Source: Batkoa obscura | Lineage: Eukaryota | NCBI GenBank assembly: GCA_030770535.1 | Contig: JASVEC010000021.1 | Coordinates: forward strand, 558,001 to 622,000 | Direction: 5' to 3' | Length of the DNA stretch: 64,000 nucleotides | Part shown: in pieces, positions 57 through 13,128 of the stretch | Numbering within the stretch: position 1 is the first letter of the stretch | Layout: each line of letters starts with the position of its first letter | Translations under genes and position numbers: made by a program | Notes under the pieces: generated by a model | Database searches by the model: none | What the model saw: only the letters and a program-made list of their open reading frames with translations | Told to the model about the DNA's origin: nothing

Positions 57-1141
57 AAATATTTTCTTAATATGTAATACTATATTTTTTAAAACGTTAA
101 TATCTTGAAATTAGTAGTATAGGGCATATATGAAACTGACTTAGGTTTATACTATTGAACTTTGAAGGATTTTGGATAAGCTTCCTTTTTTATAAAGGCT
201 AATTACATTTACATTGTTGTATATACGTTTAAAATCATCTATATCCTTTATATGATCGTGTATGATATAATGAGCCTTACGATTTGAAACAAGATGGTTA
301 TTACATTAACTAAGCGTAAACCACAAAAAAAATGAAACCCCCTTACTTATCAATGAATTCATACATTATTCTTTACTTCATATTAGAATTTTATTTATAA
401 TGAATCTTTAATTTTTTTTAAAACTACAAAAGAACTAGCAATCGGTGGAGCTTAAAATTTTAGTATAAGCTTAAAATTTTAATTTGGATATAACTTTCTT
501 AAAGTTTGAGGCTTTAAATTTGATAACTGTATTACTGTTAGAAGGGTTGAATCCTTGTAGCGAATGAAGCCAAGTTTATTTAGTCTAATTGACACTTAAA
601 TAAAAGTCTTAGCGAAGAGGTTGATAATAGTCACTTACTATTACCAGGTCATCTAACTTCCATCAGTATTACTATTTTAAATCCTTTAATCTGGGGTGTA
701 TTTTTGAAAAAATATAATAAAATTTTAAAGACTATCCTTAGAAACAACACCCGTGTTTGATGATATATCAATAGAAGCGTCTTAACTAGAAGTATCTACT
801 TTTAGAAATAATGACCCATTTTAAAAATTACTTTATCCTAAGGCAAAACAAAAATCTCAAGATGGATATTTTGAGTTTATCTATGAAAATCACTCTCAAA
901 AGCAGTAACTTATTATGTTGTGTGGTTAAGTATACTTGTTTCAAAGTAAAAAATGGTATCTATATAGTAAAATAAAGTGCACGTAAGATACTATAATTAG
1001 CTAAAATGTATTGATATGCTTCATTTGATATAAAAATTAAAATCGAAATAAAATACAAAAACATTAATTTAACACAATAAATAGTTAACATTTTTAAATC
1101 TATTCTCATATCATGATTTTATCTTAAAGGGAAATCTATAA

Positions 1142-2249
<1,108 letters not shown>

Positions 2250-2793
2250 TTTTTTTGATATTATCGTATTGATAAAGTGCAAGTATCTTATTTTGAAAAA
2301 CTATTTTCTTTTAACTTGTCAACTTTGTACAAATTTTATTTTGTTTTTTTATATTTCGGTTTTCATTGGCTTTAAAAAGAATCCTGTTGTTTTATTAGCT
2401 ATTTTAAAATAATGTGCCTTTCCACTAATTTAGGAGTTATACAGCTCCGCATTTATTTCAGAAAATTGGCAAGCTATAAATTTAGTGAGGAAATGATTTC
2501 TGAAAAGAATTTTAGTAAAATAAAATTAACAATGATAGTAATACAAAGTGACATTATATACAAGCATCCTTTTGTTTCGACATTTAACTAATGCTTTCAC
2601 TTGATTCTATGTTGCATACAAAGCGTACAAAATGCTGAATTTAAAAGATATTCCTAAGTCATGGATTTTTTATCAAGAATAGTAGACTAAAAATCAAAAA
2701 TATGGGAATGATTTTTCATTTTTTCATTTTCTACATAGCATAAAATCTAGAAAATACTAACAAGTTACTGAAATAAACAAGATACTCTTGTAT

Positions 2794-3147: not shown

Positions 3148-4988
3148 TTATAAATGACCATCATTGGAAACAGTTGGAAACTCAGAATTGACTACACCAA
3201 GATGAAGAATTCTGTTACCAGATTGACAAACTGGATCCACATTTTTACCCACAACAATGCCATCTTCTGGTGCGAAATATGTTTCTTCAAGGTTACCAAA
3301 GATATTGTGTAATGTAGCAATCGGTTCATTCTTTTTAACCCATGTATTAACATCTGGAAGTACAGTTAAAATGCCTCCCCTAGATGCAAAAATCCAATAA
3401 GACTTAGCACATATTACTGGTGCATATTCGGATGGCGTTAAATTACCATCTTCGTTAATCATTTGCAAATGCGACATGATATTACTTACTCCCATCAATG
3501 CTGATCTTATAAATCTTTTTTGGAATCTAGAAGGATCTCCAATTTCTACAGTAATTGCTGGTATCCCTAATTCCATAGCTGCTCCTCTAAGTGAACCATC
3601 TGGAGAAGTATTATGTACAATAATCTGAGGGTTTTGTAATTGTGCCATATTTCTGGTTTTTGAATCCATCATGTTAGCTCTAACATATAAACTATTAACT
3701 CTTCCTCGTGATGCTGTATGTAAATCGAGTAAATACTCAATTTTATTTATTATTCGGTCCATCAAATTATAAGAGTACACTTGTGGCCTAGATCCGTTCT
3801 TTTTTCTAATTAAATGATGTAAGTGACCAACCCATAAGTATTAAGTATATTTTACCCTGGCATTAACCTATTTAAATCTTGCCCATCATAAGTTCTCTGA
3901 CTTGTTAAATAGCCTGGAACATTTGCTACTGGAACAGCGACAATGATTCCATGTAAATTGGACGTTTTAATTTCACGAAATAATCGATGTATTAAAGGAA
4001 TTCCATTTAATTCATTTCCATGTAATGCTGCGGTAATACCTAAAACTGGACCAGGTTTTACACCCTAAGAAATAATTCAATATGGTATATTTAATATTTA
4101 AATTGCAAACTCACTTTGGCTACAATAACTGGAACTTTAATCGGAAGTGATAAACCATCTTCAGCAACTACTACCCAAAGCCTTGAGATCCTGTCACCTG
4201 GTAAAGCATCTAAATCTAAGTTAGTTACAGTAGGAACCACGGGCTCAACTGGATGGATATCTTCCGTCGGAGCTAATGGTGCAGGCGGGACATGAGTTCT
4301 CCAAACCTGTTTAGCCTCAAACAACATACTTTCATCTTTTTCACTAGCAACGAAGGAACAATTAGTAACTAATGGCCACCAATCTTCTCTTATATTGGTA
4401 TCAATATGCTTATCGAATTTTTTCAATATTTTTTGAAATCCAGTGATATTTGTATTAGTAAACTCTAAACATTAATATGACTTTAAATAATTGAAATAAT
4501 TACCAAATAAATATTCTAATTGTTGCAACAGTTTTGAAAAATCTTGTCGCCTAGTAAATTGTTATTTATTTTTTTAAAATAAAATGAATTTCCTACCATC
4601 TATTTGTTTCATTCTGAGTCATTTCATCGCTCCACTACCAAATATTTTAATACTACAAATAAAATGTATAAAAATAGTCTTACAATACTCTTTAAGCTAT
4701 TTAGTCTTTCTCTCAATTCATTTTCTTTTACTTTATATCTATCATCTACTTTATTTAGTTCTTCTAATAAAAGCTCTTTGAACTCATTCATCAAATCGTC
4801 TTTTACTTCATCGCTTTTAACGCTATCTTTATCATATATTAGAATAAGGCATATAAGCATATTAAATTTAGCTTACCATTATAAGTGACCTCATACTCTT
4901 TAATTGCTTTTTTTAAAAGTTTATAATCGATATAATAAATAGCCCAAGTGGGTATTGACCTTAAGGCTAATTGTTTAGCAAATTTCAT
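3148..4988 (-). CDS. SPX domain fused to succinylglutamate desuccinylase/aspartoacylase (AstE/AspA, M14-like) Zn-deacylase, ~518 aa, 7 exons
   Basis: Exons 4988-4877, 4826-4684, 4634-4597, 4550-4504, 4464-4115, 4064-3856, 3805-3148; all GT-AG, 1557 nt in frame. SPX motifs MKFAKQL..PTW..YIDYKLLKK and NITGFQKILKKFDK. Deacylase motifs GPVLGITAALHGNE, VPVANVPG, DLNR, LDLHT, AITVEIG. Confidence 0.88.
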
Positions 4989-5662
4989 TTTCCTTCAAAT
5001 ATTTAGCAGAAAAACAAATTAGCTATATTTAAAATTTTTATTTATCATATATTAAAACTCATCATCATACTTTTTGTAACTATCCAAAAATAAATCGCTT
5101 AATTTCTGTTAAATAGCCAATGGTTGCATACTATAGCATGGTAGTTGCTTTTTTTATTGGTTCTTATTTTCCTTCCGCCTCATTTTAGTGTTCTGGCTAA
5201 ACTTACCTCATTATCTAGTTGGTGTGACTGGATTTTATTCTTTAAAAAATTAATTTGTTGGCGGATGCGTCATGACTAAAATATAGTTTATTAAAATTAA
5301 AATTATTTAATAGTCCAGAAAAGCTTATATATCGTAGATAAATTCATTTAAAGATGAAAATCCAATCTAATACATCTGCTTTATCGCTTCGTATTTTACG
5401 ATATATTTAATTTTGTGTGATATACACAATTCGTAATTAGTCCAATTCAATAAAAAGTGTTTCAAAAATTGATCAAAGAATTATAATATCTTTGAGGATA
5501 AGTTGATTGAATTAAAATTAAAATCAAAATTAAAATTAAATATCTTAATGCCTCAATATATAAATTAAGGGTGAATAATCATCAAACAGTAGAAAATGGC
5601 AAAAAAGTGTAACAAATTATTATCATTATTTTATTATAAACTAATATTAAGCTTTATATTAA

Positions 5663-5752
5663 GGGTGCTTTTTTGGCTTCATCACTTTTTCCATTTTTTG
5701 AGTGCTATTTCAGTGGAAAGAGAATTAGTAAAATTTAACCAAAAAATAGATG
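5663..5752 (+). mobile_element. MITE copy, right end degenerate
   Basis: GGGTGCTTTTTTGGCTTCATCACTTTTTCC...ATTAGTAAAATT. Confidence 0.7.
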
Positions 5753-5797
5753 GTGGTATGTTTTTTAACTCTTGTGAAAAATAAGAAAAATTTGAGC

Positions 5798-5871
5798 GCT
5801 CGTATGGCGCAATTGGCTAGCGCGTCCGACTGTTAATCGGGAGGTTACTGGTTCGATCCCAGTTATGAGCG
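5798..5871 (+). tRNA. tRNA-Asn (GTT), intronless
   Basis: Cloverleaf: acceptor GCTCGTA/TATGAGC, D-stem GCGC/GCGC, anticodon arm TCCGA-CTGTTAA-TCGGG, T-arm ACTGG-TTCGATC-CCAGT. Confidence 0.95.
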
Positions 5872-6009: not shown

Positions 6010-6515
6010 AACATAAACCTTGATATTAGTTTATCATAACACTTTTATATTTAAAAAATATTTTCTCAAGCATTTTATAACTATTTTAATTTTATTGTCA
6101 TTAATATTATAATATCATATTAGACTTGAAAATTAACTCTATAAGTGCTCTCTAATAACACAATGGATTTTTTCTATAAATTCGTATACTGAAGATATTC
6201 AAATTAAAAGTATCCTTGATTATGCTCAATTCGTTACATTTAATACTTTATACTTTTCTTATACCAATGTTACTTTAGTAAAATCATAAGAGTATTAAAG
6301 ATATTTTTTAGAAACCAAGTATCCTTTATAGCATTTTATATAACTTTTAAGCTATATGTTAATTATAAAAACAACTAATAACAACAGTTAATAATTAAAA
6401 CAGGAAAATTTAACATTACAATTCACTTGAAAACCAATAAAAAGCATGTAGAAAAAGGTTACTAATATTTATAAATAAACAAAAAAGGAAATGAAGAATT
6501 AAATGAATAGTAAAA

Positions 6516-7304
6516 TTAAAGTCGCATCAAACTAGTCGAAGGTACAATGGAATTCCTTTTAAACAGCCTTTTATCTAGCTCATAAATTTCAAGCTAAAAG
6601 CAGGTTAATACTTTAAAAATATAAAACCAAACTAGATACAACTTACATATAAAAAGCCACTTTTAGTAGGATCTCTTAGGCACCAGCCTATAGGGTAATA
6701 AACATCCATATTTTGTTGTTCAATAAATTTACTCACTTGTTCAGCAGCCTAATCAAATCATTTTCATTTAAATATTGGTATTAAAAAAATCGAATAACTA
6801 TATCGCTTTACCTTATATAAATCATTTTTACAACATTGAGTATAAGTATAACAAGAAGCGATATCTAAAAAGAAAGTGAAAATATCTTTTAATTTTTCGC
6901 CATGCCCTTGGCTTATTATTCTATTGATAGTATCTATGGTATTATAAAATGTTTCTGGTGGTATCTAATAAGTTAAAATAAATAAATGAATTATAATTCC
7001 AATAGAGTTAAAAAAATAAGCTTACTTTTTGTGCTAACATAGGAGGAAATTGCATTTCAAATTTAGGTACATCTGGGGTAGAATAATCCCTTGGTACTTT
7101 AAATAATTTGCCATCTTGAAATAGGATACTATTTCTTATGATCCGATTGGTACTTAATCGTTTATTTTGTAAAACGGATTTAAGCTTATCCTTTGGTGGA
7201 GTATCTTGTTTTAAATGAATAGGTAATGGTGGAGGTAATTCACCTATTTGTTCCATGGAAAACTCTTCTTCTTTAATACCATTTTCTTGTAAACGTGTTG
7301 CCAT
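6516..7304 (-). CDS. Erf4/Golgin A7 (GCP16) family palmitoyltransferase accessory subunit, 4 exons
   Basis: Spliced product contains PRDYS..VPKFEMQFPPML..IPPETFYNTIDTINRI, YTQCC, FIEQQNMDVYYPIGWCLRDPTKSGFLYLEI, matching the Erf4 family pattern; TAA at 6516-6518. Confidence 0.8.
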
Positions 7305-8527
7305 TATATTATATTAAATCAAACTAGTATAGTTTTCATGTAAATAAGAATGATTAAAGCTTTTCATTAAATGTTTATTACTAACTTCCCCTTATTCATG
7401 GCAAAATTTAGGTGGGGTGGGAATTGATCTACTTTTATTGGTGGATTAAATTATAGTTTTTTATGCAAATTTAAACCCATTGAATTTTTTAAACCGAATA
7501 TTAGGTAAGTATATTTGAACTGGTAAATTATCTCATAAAGTTCAATGGTTTCATAAATGAAAGGTTGCAATCTGGTTAGCGAATTCATAGTAGGATAATA
7601 ACATTTACTTTATAAAACTATCAAATTAATTGAGACAAATTATCAGTATAAAAAGAACATGCTAGTATATCGTTCTTTATTTCAACTATTTTCATTTAAA
7701 TTTGTCGTTAATTTTTTTACCTGAATCTAAAATCATACAATTACATATAACCTTTATACACAGATAAAAAAAATAATGACAAATTTAAATGAAAATGCCT
7801 GAAACATAGATAACAACTTGATAATAAATAGGCTGGGTTTATTCTTCAACTTTCATCAATTGTTACTCTTGAGACTTAATTTGGTTAGGATTTTTTAACT
7901 CAAGAATAAATTTAATTGATTTCGTTGTTGCAGTCTTAAATTACAATCAATATAGTTTTAGAAATAGGTTAAAATTTATTATAAATCTAACTGTTAGTAC
8001 CCTCGAATAAACTCTAGTCTTTGAATTTTTATCAAGTAAATATAAGTGGTCTATTACTTTTAGTACTACTTGTAGTTGAATGATTCAGCTCAAATGCTAT
8101 GTTGTGATGTGTATCATTCCCTTTTTTCATCAAAACTTATAGTACAAAACCATACTTACATTTGATCATAGTTATTTAAAATTCAATTAAAAATAAAATC
8201 AATTTCTAAACACTTTAATATTATTTTAAGTTTTATAATAGTATATTGTTTGACATATATAATACGTAGATAATATAAAAGCTATAATTCTTTTTGAAAA
8301 AGTATTAATAAATGCTTATTAATATTCTTAAATGTTTTAAATTTATATACAAAAGGTTTTATAAAGTAATTTGAATATAAAAAACTGGTAAGTTTTTAAT
8401 AAAATACATAAATGTTTTTTAGATAATGTCATTTACTTTTGATATAAATGATTTTAAAATAAAAAATACTGAGTAAAAAATAAGTTTGAATAAGAATTTT
8501 TGAAAACAATTTAATATTTTACTAAAT

Positions 8528-8626
8528 GGGAGTGTTTTTTTTGGCTTCAGTACTTTTTCCATCTTTTAAGCACTATTTGAATGGAAAAATTATTAGTAAA
8601 ATTCTTAAATACAAAAATATATCCCC
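8528..8626 (+). mobile_element. MITE copy, TSD AAAT
   Basis: Full length; AAAT on both flanks. Confidence 0.88.
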
Positions 8627-8814
8627 AAATTGTAACTATCATAATTAAAATTTTAGCTTATTTTATATCTAGTATAACTAAATATTCTAAATTAATATAA
8701 CTTTTTATAAAATTCATTTGATAATATAGAATAACAAAAATAAAACATGAAATTAAAGAATGATAACACCCAAATTCTATCTCAATATTATTTCATTTAA
8801 AACAAATTTAATAA

Positions 8815-11476: not shown

Positions 11477-12259
11477 CTAAGAATTCTGCAAAATAAAGGA
11501 TCTGAAGGCAGAGACACGGGTCCATACAGTAGGTATCCCTTTATGAGCACAGGGTTCCCCAAAAGAAGTAGTTCCAATTAAAATTGGATGTCCATTAGCA
11601 CCAATAATGAAAAGAGGGCCTCCCGAATCACCATTACATGCATCTTTACCACCCTCAGCGCCAGCACACACTTGTGAATCAACATTAATATCATAACCAT
11701 TATTGGCCCAATAACTAGCACATGCCTTCTTGTCAAAAATCGGAATTCTAACTTCTCTTAATACAGGGGAACCGGGGCCATTAGCTTTGGTGACACCCCA
11801 ACCAGCAGCTAATACTTTAAGACCTGTTTGTTCACCATAAGTACCATCATCTAAATCAATACTACCAATGCCAACTGAAGCAGGGATAGCAAGCTTCCAA
11901 ATAGAAATATCATTGGTAGCATTAAAGGAATCAAAATTTGGGTGATTGATGATTTTAGAAACAAAAATAGATTGTCCACCTTCAGAGCTAGAGGATTGTT
12001 TAAGATTGTGTCGATGCACATTAACAGTATATGAAGACGCCGGAAGTTCAGAACAGTGACCAGCAGTTAATACAGTGTCCCTGTTAAGGATAATACCGCC
12101 GCAGTCGTGGACACCTTTCACTTGTAACGATACTAACCATGGATATTTAAATTTTGGGCTTACTTCAACGCCACCAACTATACGATCATCTTGAATCTGT
12201 GAGGCTGAATAGATAAAATTAAAAAAAGTGGTAAGGGTAATGATGGGTTTGGTAAGCAT
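11477..12259 (-). CDS. Secreted trypsin-like serine protease (S1A), intronless
   Basis: Signal peptide, R-IVGG activation site, TAGHC (His), NDISI (Asp), GDSGGP (Ser); KDAC gives the Asp189-type trypsin pocket. Confidence 0.95.
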   Translation of the reverse strand: MLTKPIITLTTFFNFIYSASQIQDDRIVGGVEVSPKFKYPWLVSLQVKGVHDCGGIILNRDTVLTAGHCSELPASSYTVNVHRHNLKQSSSSEGGQSIFVSKIINHPNFDSFNATNDISIWKLAIPASVGIGSIDLDDGTYGEQTGLKVLAAGWGVTKANGPGSPVLREVRIPIFDKKACASYWANNGYDINVDSQVCAGAEGGKDACNGDSGGPLFIIGANGHPILIGTTSFGEPCAHKGIPTVWTRVSAFRSFILQNS

Positions 12260-13128
12260 TTTTGTACTCTTTAAAAAAACTATGTTTTTACAGCTATTTA
12301 ATTAGAGTATTTATATAGTGGAAATAAAACTATATCAAGAGGATAAAAACATTATTTTTGGACTAGTGATAGGCTCATGTTATAAGTCATTACTAAGGTT
12401 TTCTTCAATGGACTTAAGTTAGCTTGTTAAATACCAAGATTTATTTTTAATGAGTGATCTTAACTTTTACTGAATCTAATTTTAGTAAATCAGATGCCAC
12501 TATCACCTGTTTATTAATTACTCATTTTACTGCTATACATATAACAAGTCAAACTATTTTTGGTTTAAAATAGAACCCTTGGATTTTAATTTATTAAATT
12601 ATTTATGTAAGAATTCTAATGGCTTAAGGGATAGGTGTCATTCGTATAAAGCTGGAATCAAATATAAGTTAAATTTAAAAGATTTGATTTTGAAATTTAA
12701 TAAAATAGCAATTTCCATTAATGATTTAAACGTTCATTTTAAAGTAAATGAAACTAGTTTTAGATAAGTAATATGAAAGAATAGGTAATTTGTATTTGTA
12801 TTTTTATATGAAAAAGTATACTTGATATGTAATTTAATTTGAACTACTATTTTAATTAAAGTTAATTTATAATTATTAAACGATAGCTATAGATATTTTA
12901 TTAAAATAACATTAAAAATGCTTAAAAATTGATTTTATTTTTAATATATTTTTAAATAGTTATGATTAAATATAAGATTGATTTTATACTAAAAGCCTTA
13001 AGAAAAAAGGAGGAATGGTATGACTTTTATTATTCCATTTTTTACATTTAAGAGTTATACAATAAGGTTGTATTATAAGTTACTAAATAGAATGCTTAAA
13101 AAACTATTTAACCTACAAAACAATACTT

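Follow-up and report, generated by a model that had tools for sequence, protein, structure and literature searches.

Does an SPX domain, a sensor of inositol pyrophosphates, really stand in one protein with an M14 (AstE/AspA-type) zinc hydrolase, and if so, what would such an enzyme break down? The question is raised by a gene on the minus strand of the window, the whole 64,000-nucleotide (nt) stretch of Batkoa obscura DNA analyzed here (contig JASVEC010000021.1, positions 558,001 to 622,000), in whose coordinates all features are given. We describe the SPX-hydrolase as a real, old and uncharacterized SPX-enzyme architecture with a ligase partner, an unnamed family here called F1. The gene is built as follows (aa, amino acids):

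3148-4988, minus strand: SPX + M14 (AstE/AspA-type) zinc hydrolase gene, 7 exons, 518 aa
4877-4988, minus strand: exon 1, aa 1-37, SPX start with K2, K5, Y19, Y22 and K26 (Pfam SPX E 4.3e-9)
4934-4911, minus strand: exon 1 residues Y19-K26, from alignment to the XPR1 and 5ijj SPX domains
4826/4877, minus strand: exon 1/exon 2 joint, present in a transcript contig
4684-4826, minus strand: exon 2, aa 38-85, long SPX helix (Pfam SPX E 1.5e-5; contig joints)
4597-4634, minus strand: exon 3, 38 nt (reading frame and contig joints)
4504-4550, minus strand: exon 4, 47 nt (reading frame and contig joints)
4115-4464, minus strand: exon 5, aa 114-230 (Pfam SPX E 6e-6; spanned by one contig)
4432-4409, minus strand: exon 5 lysine cluster K125/K128/K129/K132
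4288-4232, minus strand: Pro-rich flexible linker in exon 5, aa 173-191, between the SPX end at about aa 172 and the first hydrolase strands
3856-4064, minus strand: exon 6, aa 231-300, with predicted Zn ligands H245 and E248 (HGNE, 4022-4011), R287, N295 and R296 (Pfam AstE_AspA_cat E 3.3e-16)
3148-3805, minus strand: exon 7, aa 301-518, to the stop (Pfam AstE_AspA_cat E 2.5e-13), with predicted Zn ligand H329 (DLHT, 3726-3715), R335, R373 (3588-3586) and putative catalytic E387 (3546-3544)
3148-3159, minus strand: terminal DGH motif and stop, closing the C-terminal beta domain of exon 7

The original prediction had proposed a seven-exon GT-AG model of about 518 aa in which the exon at 4464-4115 carries both the SPX motif KKFDK (aa 128-132) and the start of the deacylase, and both points are borne out. 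All six introns are GT-AG and 39-50 nt long, and a single open frame, of 518 aa, resulted when 18 donor/acceptor combinations at introns 2-3 and two exon-skipping models were tried. The product is letter for letter that of P0001 in our set of relatives (KAI9298785.1, hypothetical protein K502DRAFT_362010 of Neoconidiobolus thromboides, NCBI). One 2281-nt contig from sequencing run X1 lacks every one of the six introns, and the joints are repeated in runs X2-X5 of a second study, of which X3 has all six; six other runs, with small shares of matching words, are left out of account. These runs were typed as RNA by guess, and the intron-free contigs and uncovered intergenic bins are consistent with RNA. 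Because exon 5 holds parts of both domains, the fusion is not a product of gene-model merging, and a merge of two neighboring genes is ruled out by the open seven-exon frame and the single contig across the joints. The spliced SPX-hydrolase fusion is real.

Proteins of the window were scored against Pfam and NCBIfam at curated cut-offs, both exon by exon and whole. The hidden Markov model matches that had been anticipated for both halves were obtained: SPX (PF03105) scores 71.1 bits against a cut-off of 27.8 (E 2.3e-19), with separate matches on exons 1, 2 and 5, and AstE_AspA_cat (PF24827) scores 117.4 bits against 25 (E 7.2e-34), with separate matches on exons 6 and 7. An AlphaFold2 model of the 518-aa protein, built from an 80-row alignment, has a mean predicted local distance difference test score (pLDDT) of 92.4 and a predicted template modeling score (pTM) of 0.65, and within the expected Pro-rich linker aa 176-186 fall below a pLDDT of 50; the low pTM and the low-confidence linker therefore indicate two well-folded units whose relative position is not fixed by the model. 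Both predicted folds were recovered. Residues 1-173 match the IP8-bound SPX domain of XPR1 (8tyv; Z 21.2, root-mean-square deviation (rmsd) 1.4 Å over 162 residues) and the SPX domain 5ijj (Z 20.3), and alignment with both places Y19, Y22, K26, K125, K128/129 and K132 of P0001 at the ligand-binding positions, in agreement with the Tyr/Lys residues noted from the sequence. Among 78 eukaryote-type relatives with an M[KR][FY] start, YxxYxxLK is kept in 75, the strict lysine cluster in 58, a relaxed one in 69, and both strict motifs in 56. In Vtc2, the residues that correspond to Y19, Y22 and the lysine cluster lie in or beside the pocket for the ligand (PMC10167327, excerpt). The inositol-phosphate-binding residues of the SPX domain are thus conserved at the sequence level, and binding is predicted.

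The hydrolase half (aa 192-508) is closest in fold to 3cdx (Z 35.0) and the EutE/DoeB structure 6twm (34.0), followed by CphZ (28.5), the carboxypeptidase CCP 4b6z (17.7) and rat aspartoacylase (17.4). Its motifs, which the original prediction had listed as intact, are found at 245 (HGNE), 293 (DLNR), 327 (DLHT) and 384 (ITVEIG). Counted over 120 relatives, H329, R287, N295, R335, R373 and E387 are present in all 120, H245 and E248 in 119 (one gap), and R296 in 114. Counterparts of these residues make up the zinc triad, carboxylate clamp and general base of ASPA (PMC10998430, excerpt) and the catalytic set of CphZ (PMC9974463, excerpt). The zinc ligands H245/E248/H329, the general base E387 and the carboxylate-binding R287/N295/R296 are conserved, and activity is predicted. 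The terminal DGH motif, present in 108 of the 114 eukaryote-type relatives and found at none of the ends of those bacterial proteins inspected, is a candidate for a eukaryote-specific contact or for a metal site in the fused protein. Identity as DoeB, AstE or aspartoacylase was rejected, as scores lie far under all three NCBIfam cut-offs: 66.2 bits against 402.7 for DoeB/EutE (TIGR02994), 29.8 against 180 for aspartoacylase (NF002601) and 21 against 305.65 for the succinylglutamate desuccinylase AstE (TIGR03242).

The possibility that the fusion is a rarity did not survive a search for relatives. With exon 7 as the query and proteins longer than 382 aa as the target, 145 matches were obtained; 120 of these are listed, 96 of them with both Pfam domains. 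Named fungal lineages are Zoopagomycota, Mortierellaceae, Glomeromycotina, Calcarisporiella, chytrids, Pneumocystis and Saitoella; other named eukaryotes are Fonticula (in which Pfam calls no SPX), Balamuthia, Plasmodiophora and Spongospora, and a member from the stramenopile Mucochytrium scores for both domains. Across the relatives the hydrolase is 49-83% identical and the SPX domain much less so; their lengths range from 500 to 770 aa, and the flexible linker differs greatly in size between them and is poorly conserved. Fungal hydrolases form one group in two trees (Shimodaira-Hasegawa-like approximate likelihood ratio test (SH-aLRT) 99 and 98) in which the major lineages largely stay together, and eukaryotes are separate from the bacteria described below in both. 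Eukaryote monophyly is recovered with LG+G4 on 94 rows (SH-aLRT 96) and lost when 24 rows are dropped and a mixture model is applied to the other 70; there the distant outgroup places the root among the eukaryotes, and the 32 bacteria with the ligase cassette stay together at 99 (bootstrap search unfinished). The root is unstable, and we therefore claim an old family and no donor or order of events. On this comparative evidence, the SPX-hydrolase is an old, widespread family present in fungi, Amoebozoa, Rhizaria and a stramenopile; budding yeast, Schizosaccharomyces pombe, animals and flowering plants are not among the matches listed from this non-exhaustive search.

Databases already show both domains, under entries named 'SPX domain-containing' or hypothetical protein. 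The claim that no SPX-deacylase has been characterized holds in the literature searched: no paper on an SPX-AstE/AspA fusion was found in open PubMed Central and bioRxiv, judged by titles and the opening of abstracts, and subscription journals or supplementary domain tables may mention one. One paper whose wording combines SPX and deacylase concerns a GPI inositol deacylase (PMC13712823, excerpt), and excerpts of two fungal SPX papers (PMC13412362 and PMC7587432) do not name the SPX-hydrolase. Nor is the 'PjPho81' of the latter (XP_018228495; PMC7587432, excerpt) a misnamed family member; the Pneumocystis ortholog is XP_018230583.

The nearest prokaryotic kin lack SPX, are about 50% identical and occur in Myxococcota, Bacteroidota, Planctomycetota, Rhodothermota and some cyanobacteria; three relatives (P0115-P0117) sit fused behind a GshB-like ATP-grasp domain. 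Neighborhoods were compared in the best 80 of 578 bacterial loci, with neighbor families filtered for shadow open reading frames (ORFs) and recounted by tblastn. F1, an unnamed gene of 480 aa (for example L031:3523-4953), lies at most 5 kb from the hydrolase in 67 of these 80 loci, a GshB- or RimK-type ligase (F2) lies within 5 kb in 65, and both are present in 58. Ten genomes from the 13 loci without a nearby F1 were searched, and nine carry F1 elsewhere. When both profiles were run over 151 Myxococcota genomes, a set that includes the center genome, comes with no completeness values and holds related genomes that are not independent, F1 and the hydrolase were found in the same 22 and neither in the other 129, at a hydrolase-clade cut-off of 1e-100 chosen after a gap had been seen between 1e-160 and 1e-70. 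The two genes are at most 1.1 kb apart in 20 of these 22. Three of 121 cyanobacteria carry F1, and two of the three have the clade hydrolase. The hydrolase family is tightly coupled to a ligase family in genomes, and the link to F1 is new: the hydrolase travels with a ligase family that has no name. In Plesiocystis (L059), two tandem hydrolase copies follow F1. A Ser/Thr kinase and a PP2C phosphatase recur beside the Myxococcota cassette (12 and 13 of the 80 loci; L005-L012, L019, L041, L043 and L044), and this pair is possibly a different bacterial regulatory input where eukaryotes use SPX.

F1 has no family in Pfam or NCBIfam and no sequence match in the PDB. Its structural model (pLDDT 92.5, pTM 0.93) is closest to 3k1t (Z 17.3, rmsd 4.2 Å over 331 residues, 12% identity), and the next matches are ligases of the GspS (Z 12.5), LysX/ArgX and GSS types; F1 is accordingly modeled as a circularly permuted ATP-grasp ligase, a prediction from fold. 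The F2 protein of L045 falls below the GshB cut-offs, with 185.6 against 299 bits (TIGR01380) and 296 against 408 (PRK12458). Since a separate canonical GshB above the cut-off exists in all five cassette-bearing genomes tested, F2 is an extra ligase.

F1 also occurs in eukaryotes. A search of proteins longer than 510 aa gave 381 matches, of which the 120 listed include P0325 of N. thromboides and further carriers in Mortierellaceae, Coemansia, Calcarisporiella, a chytrid, Mucorales, Balamuthia and green plants from Botryococcus to ferns and Taxus; no F1 or F2 homolog lies in the window itself. Among the matches listed for both searches, 14 of the 31 named F1 rows from fungi or amoebae carry a strain tag that also appears on the hydrolase side. 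In Balamuthia, SPX-hydrolase and F1 accessions are consecutive on equally long contigs in three records (KAL6050373-4/6050375-7, KAL6058914/6058915-8 and KAL6079957-8/6079959), which, on accession evidence, indicates neighboring genes. In the F1 tree, the fungi (100) join Balamuthia and other protists (90), and green plants sit apart, on a branch of their own amid bacteria. The green plant rows (P0276, P0289, P0291, P0295, P0309, P0310, P0311, P0313 and P0333) come from green algae, mosses, a liverwort (Marchantia Mp_Vg00360), a lycophyte, ferns and gymnosperms; no flowering plant is among the 120 F1 matches listed. The chytrid Entophlyctis protein P0238 holds two tandem F1 copies in a 1136-aa model, possibly from merged genes.

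What might the hydrolase cleave? M14 enzymes cleave the amide that adjoins a free C-terminal carboxylate (PMC9974463, excerpt), and three comparisons bear on which residue leaves. The nearest outgroup hydrolases (L004:1089-2147 and L019:8555-9574; 30-33% identity) adjoin RimK and RimB and share with the SPX-hydrolase the pocket residues R335, N337, R342, H364 and D369-G-S-L-R373, seen as the motifs GRxN...R, H and DGSLR; they lack SPX, and their partner is the ATP-grasp glutamate ligase RimK rather than the permuted F1. RimK makes poly-alpha-glutamate (PMC11957791, excerpt); no paper characterizing these RimK/RimB-side AstE/AspA hydrolases was found in open PubMed Central and bioRxiv. The EutE/DoeB N-acetyl-diaminobutyrate deacetylase (6twm, 6twl), together with the uncharacterized 3cdx and 3na6, has the same two-domain M14 fold (Z 33-35, rmsd 2.1-2.5 Å over about 305 residues) and shares the H-x-x-E/H zinc site, the R-N-R residues and the catalytic Glu. 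It differs in being 20% identical and in having Asp at the column of R373, which is an invariant Arg in the SPX-hydrolase family; DoeB frees a basic residue, and no ectoine genes occur in the 80 bacterial neighborhoods. The cyanophycin dipeptide hydrolase CphZ (8ein, 8eip), of the same fold, holds Arg in an acidic pocket (D222, E223), where the SPX-hydrolase has invariant Arg residues, and at 15% identity in the structural alignment the latter falls outside the CphZ/AotO group, defined by more than 30% identity to CphZ and the acidic pocket (PMC9974463, excerpt); no cyanophycin synthetase lies near SPX-hydrolase kin. Because the RimK-side kin share the pocket, DoeB has Asp at R373 and the acidic pocket of CphZ holds Arg, we infer that the leaving residue is probably acidic, with Glu the most likely. 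The original prediction of an amidohydrolase or carboxypeptidase stands as regards fold and active site; N-acetyl-Asp and N-succinyl-Glu, named there as substrates to try, appear less likely, as the scores lie far below the curated cut-offs and the genomic context points instead to the product of a dedicated ATP-grasp ligase.

These results lead us to propose, with a probability of about 0.5, that the protein is a cytosolic M14-type zinc hydrolase tethered to SPX, likely clipping a terminal acidic residue, most likely Glu, off an amide or peptide made by an ATP-grasp ligase, and likely switched by inositol pyrophosphate. F1 would spend ATP to make an amide or short peptide, and that this product supplies the substrate of the hydrolase seems very likely. 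Inositol pyrophosphate (InsP7/InsP8) bound to SPX would alter the rate of hydrolysis, a step that we consider likely, and removal of the C-terminal acidic residue from the F1 product by the hydrolase is nearly as probable. The SPX-hydrolase would then likely be the degrading arm, under phosphate control, of an undescribed pathway in which the ligase makes what the hydrolase breaks down. Breakdown switched on, rather than off, at plentiful phosphate is slightly favored by analogy, because inositol pyrophosphate relieves the SPX-based inhibition of VTC (PMC10167327, excerpt). A more speculative version, which we hold to be unlikely, has F1 in many microbial eukaryotes making an undescribed peptide or polymer rich in glutamate, equivalent to cyanophycin, that is stored under phosphate limitation and freed by the SPX-hydrolase when inositol pyrophosphate signals the return of phosphate. 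If true, this would be the first direct line from inositol-pyrophosphate sensing to nitrogen or amino-acid storage, and one old enough to be common to fungi, amoebae, Rhizaria and stramenopiles.

Several observations weigh against the proposal. The SPX domain is not docked on the hydrolase in the model, hence no allosteric path is visible, and even the relaxed lysine cluster is gone in 9 of the 78 relatives, including two Pneumocystis canis rows and several Kickxellales. The assignment of R373 is sensitive to alignment: it is not registered on R168 of aspartoacylase, profile alignments by hhalign end before it, and in MAFFT its DGSLR motif is offset by one column against the LR motif of aspartoacylases from cyanobacteria. 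A His replaces R296 in 33 of 46 bacterial rows, and the substrates in bacteria may therefore not be those in eukaryotes. As for the pairing, one of the three F1-positive cyanobacteria has no hydrolase match, and green plants and Mucorales have F1 yet do not appear among the 120 hydrolase matches listed, in a search blind to short SPX-less forms. The two genes are on different contigs in N. thromboides, the F1 of the window organism rests on the identity of its SPX-hydrolase with the named N. thromboides protein, and the eukaryotic side of the pairing covers F1, with F2 counted in bacteria.

Other readings fit parts of the same evidence. The ligase and hydrolase could write and erase a protein modification, such as glutamate attached to a C-terminus or to a side chain in the manner of RimK or TTLL, with SPX tying the eraser to phosphate status. 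The RimK and RimB genes beside the nearest outgroup hydrolases, true RimK genes beside the cassette in L002, L043 and L044, the shared fold of M14 deglutamylases (CCP5) and the recurrent kinase and PP2C genes would all suit such a role. The closest structures, however, are small-molecule hydrolases (3cdx, EutE and CphZ; Z 28-35), with CCPs lower (Z 17.7), F1 is nearest to small-molecule permuted ligases (3k1t, GSS and GspS), and the neighbor families of the 80 loci hold no recurring substrate gene; we hold protein modification to be unlikely. Slightly more doubtful still is a constitutive hydrolase that acts on the F1 product while SPX works in trans, by binding or restraining the ligase or through location or stability. 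A variable linker and SPX-less bacterial enzymes that are complete by themselves are what one would then expect, and SPX does work through protein contacts in VTC and Pho81 (PMC10167327 and PMC7587432, excerpts); retention of the fusion across several eukaryotic supergroups and the conserved DGH terminus, as a candidate eukaryote-specific contact, speak for a closer tie between the two halves.

Two further readings would change the chemistry. A general N-acyl-amino-acid deacylase of the aspartoacylase, AstE or DoeB kind, with no tie to a ligase, would share the fold and catalytic set, the best structural matches are indeed DoeB/EutE-type deacetylases, and one ortholog (P0085) carries an automatic DoeB name; identity of about 20%, scores far below the three curated cut-offs, the invariant Arg373 in place of the Asp of DoeB and the near-perfect co-occurrence with F1 in Myxococcota render this improbable. 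That F1 and F2 form an alternative route to glutathione (gamma-Glu-Cys-Gly), with the hydrolase recycling glutathione or an analog, is suggested by the best structural match of F1, 3k1t, a putative gamma-glutamylcysteine synthetase, and by the GshB likeness of F2. We regard this as very improbable: F1 is 12% identical to 3k1t, F2 scores below the GshB cut-offs in genomes that have their own GshB (5/5 tested), and an M14 enzyme needs a matching C-terminal residue, which R373 does not suggest to be Gly.

Known SPX outputs in fungi concern phosphate handling (transport, polyphosphate, glycerophosphodiesters and the PHO kinase) or ubiquitination. Vtc4 (SPX with a polyphosphate polymerase), Pho81, XPR1/Syg1 and PHO1 have the same N-terminal SPX fold and Tyr/Lys ligand residues, and so does Gde1 (SPX + ankyrin + GDPD), whose SPX domain is PDB 5ijj. 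The SPX-hydrolase differs from Vtc4, Gde1, Pho81, XPR1 and PHO1 in that its output unit is a predicted peptide/amide hydrolase, soluble, with no ankyrin or membrane part and no evident phosphate chemistry. In glutathionylspermidine/trypanothione synthetase-amidase (2io7, 2vps), a permuted ATP-grasp ligase, whose fold F1 resembles, comes with an amidase for its own product; there the amidase domain is of the cysteine (CHAP) type and fused to the ligase, whereas the SPX-hydrolase is a separate zinc enzyme with an SPX sensor. CphZ, likewise annotated as AstE/AspA, is a dedicated breakdown step for an ATP-grasp-made product that was found by gene clustering (PMC9974463, excerpt). A conserved SPX-peptidase would bring the metabolism of amino acids or peptides under the control of inositol pyrophosphates, and it would offer a handle on the function of a ligase family that lacks a Pfam or NCBIfam model and is spread over bacteria, early-diverging fungi, amoebae and green plants other than flowering ones. 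Both halves are soluble, single-gene and highly conserved, and substrate and direction of control are therefore experimentally tractable.

Upstream of the start codon and around the gene, the following features were recorded:

4989-5425, minus strand: possibly a long 5' leader, in which 11 ATGs ahead of the start each begin a short ORF (2-14 aa; run X1 only)
about 1140-2300, minus strand: spermidine synthase gene, the immediate downstream neighbor, in the same orientation (Pfam Spermine_synth E 3.9e-39)
about 6460-7313, minus strand: spliced Erf4/Golgin A7-family gene, upstream (weak Pfam matches; three transcript joints)
11477-12301, minus strand: intronless secreted-type trypsin-family protease (Pfam Trypsin E 9.6e-49)

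The X1 contig runs 437 nt 5' of the start, to 5425, and those of X3 and X5 end near the ATG; the stretch could be a leader bearing upstream ORFs, or merely a longer assembly in one run. No CACGTG/CACGTT or TGACTC-type sites are present in 4989-5650. The spermidine synthase gene was considered as a hint to the substrate, given the GspS-like fold of F1, and was set aside because no spermidine genes recur in the 80 bacterial neighborhoods. Pile-ups of partly matching, loose-ended contigs at about 2750-2950, 5660-5800 and 8350-8800 probably mark small dispersed repeats.

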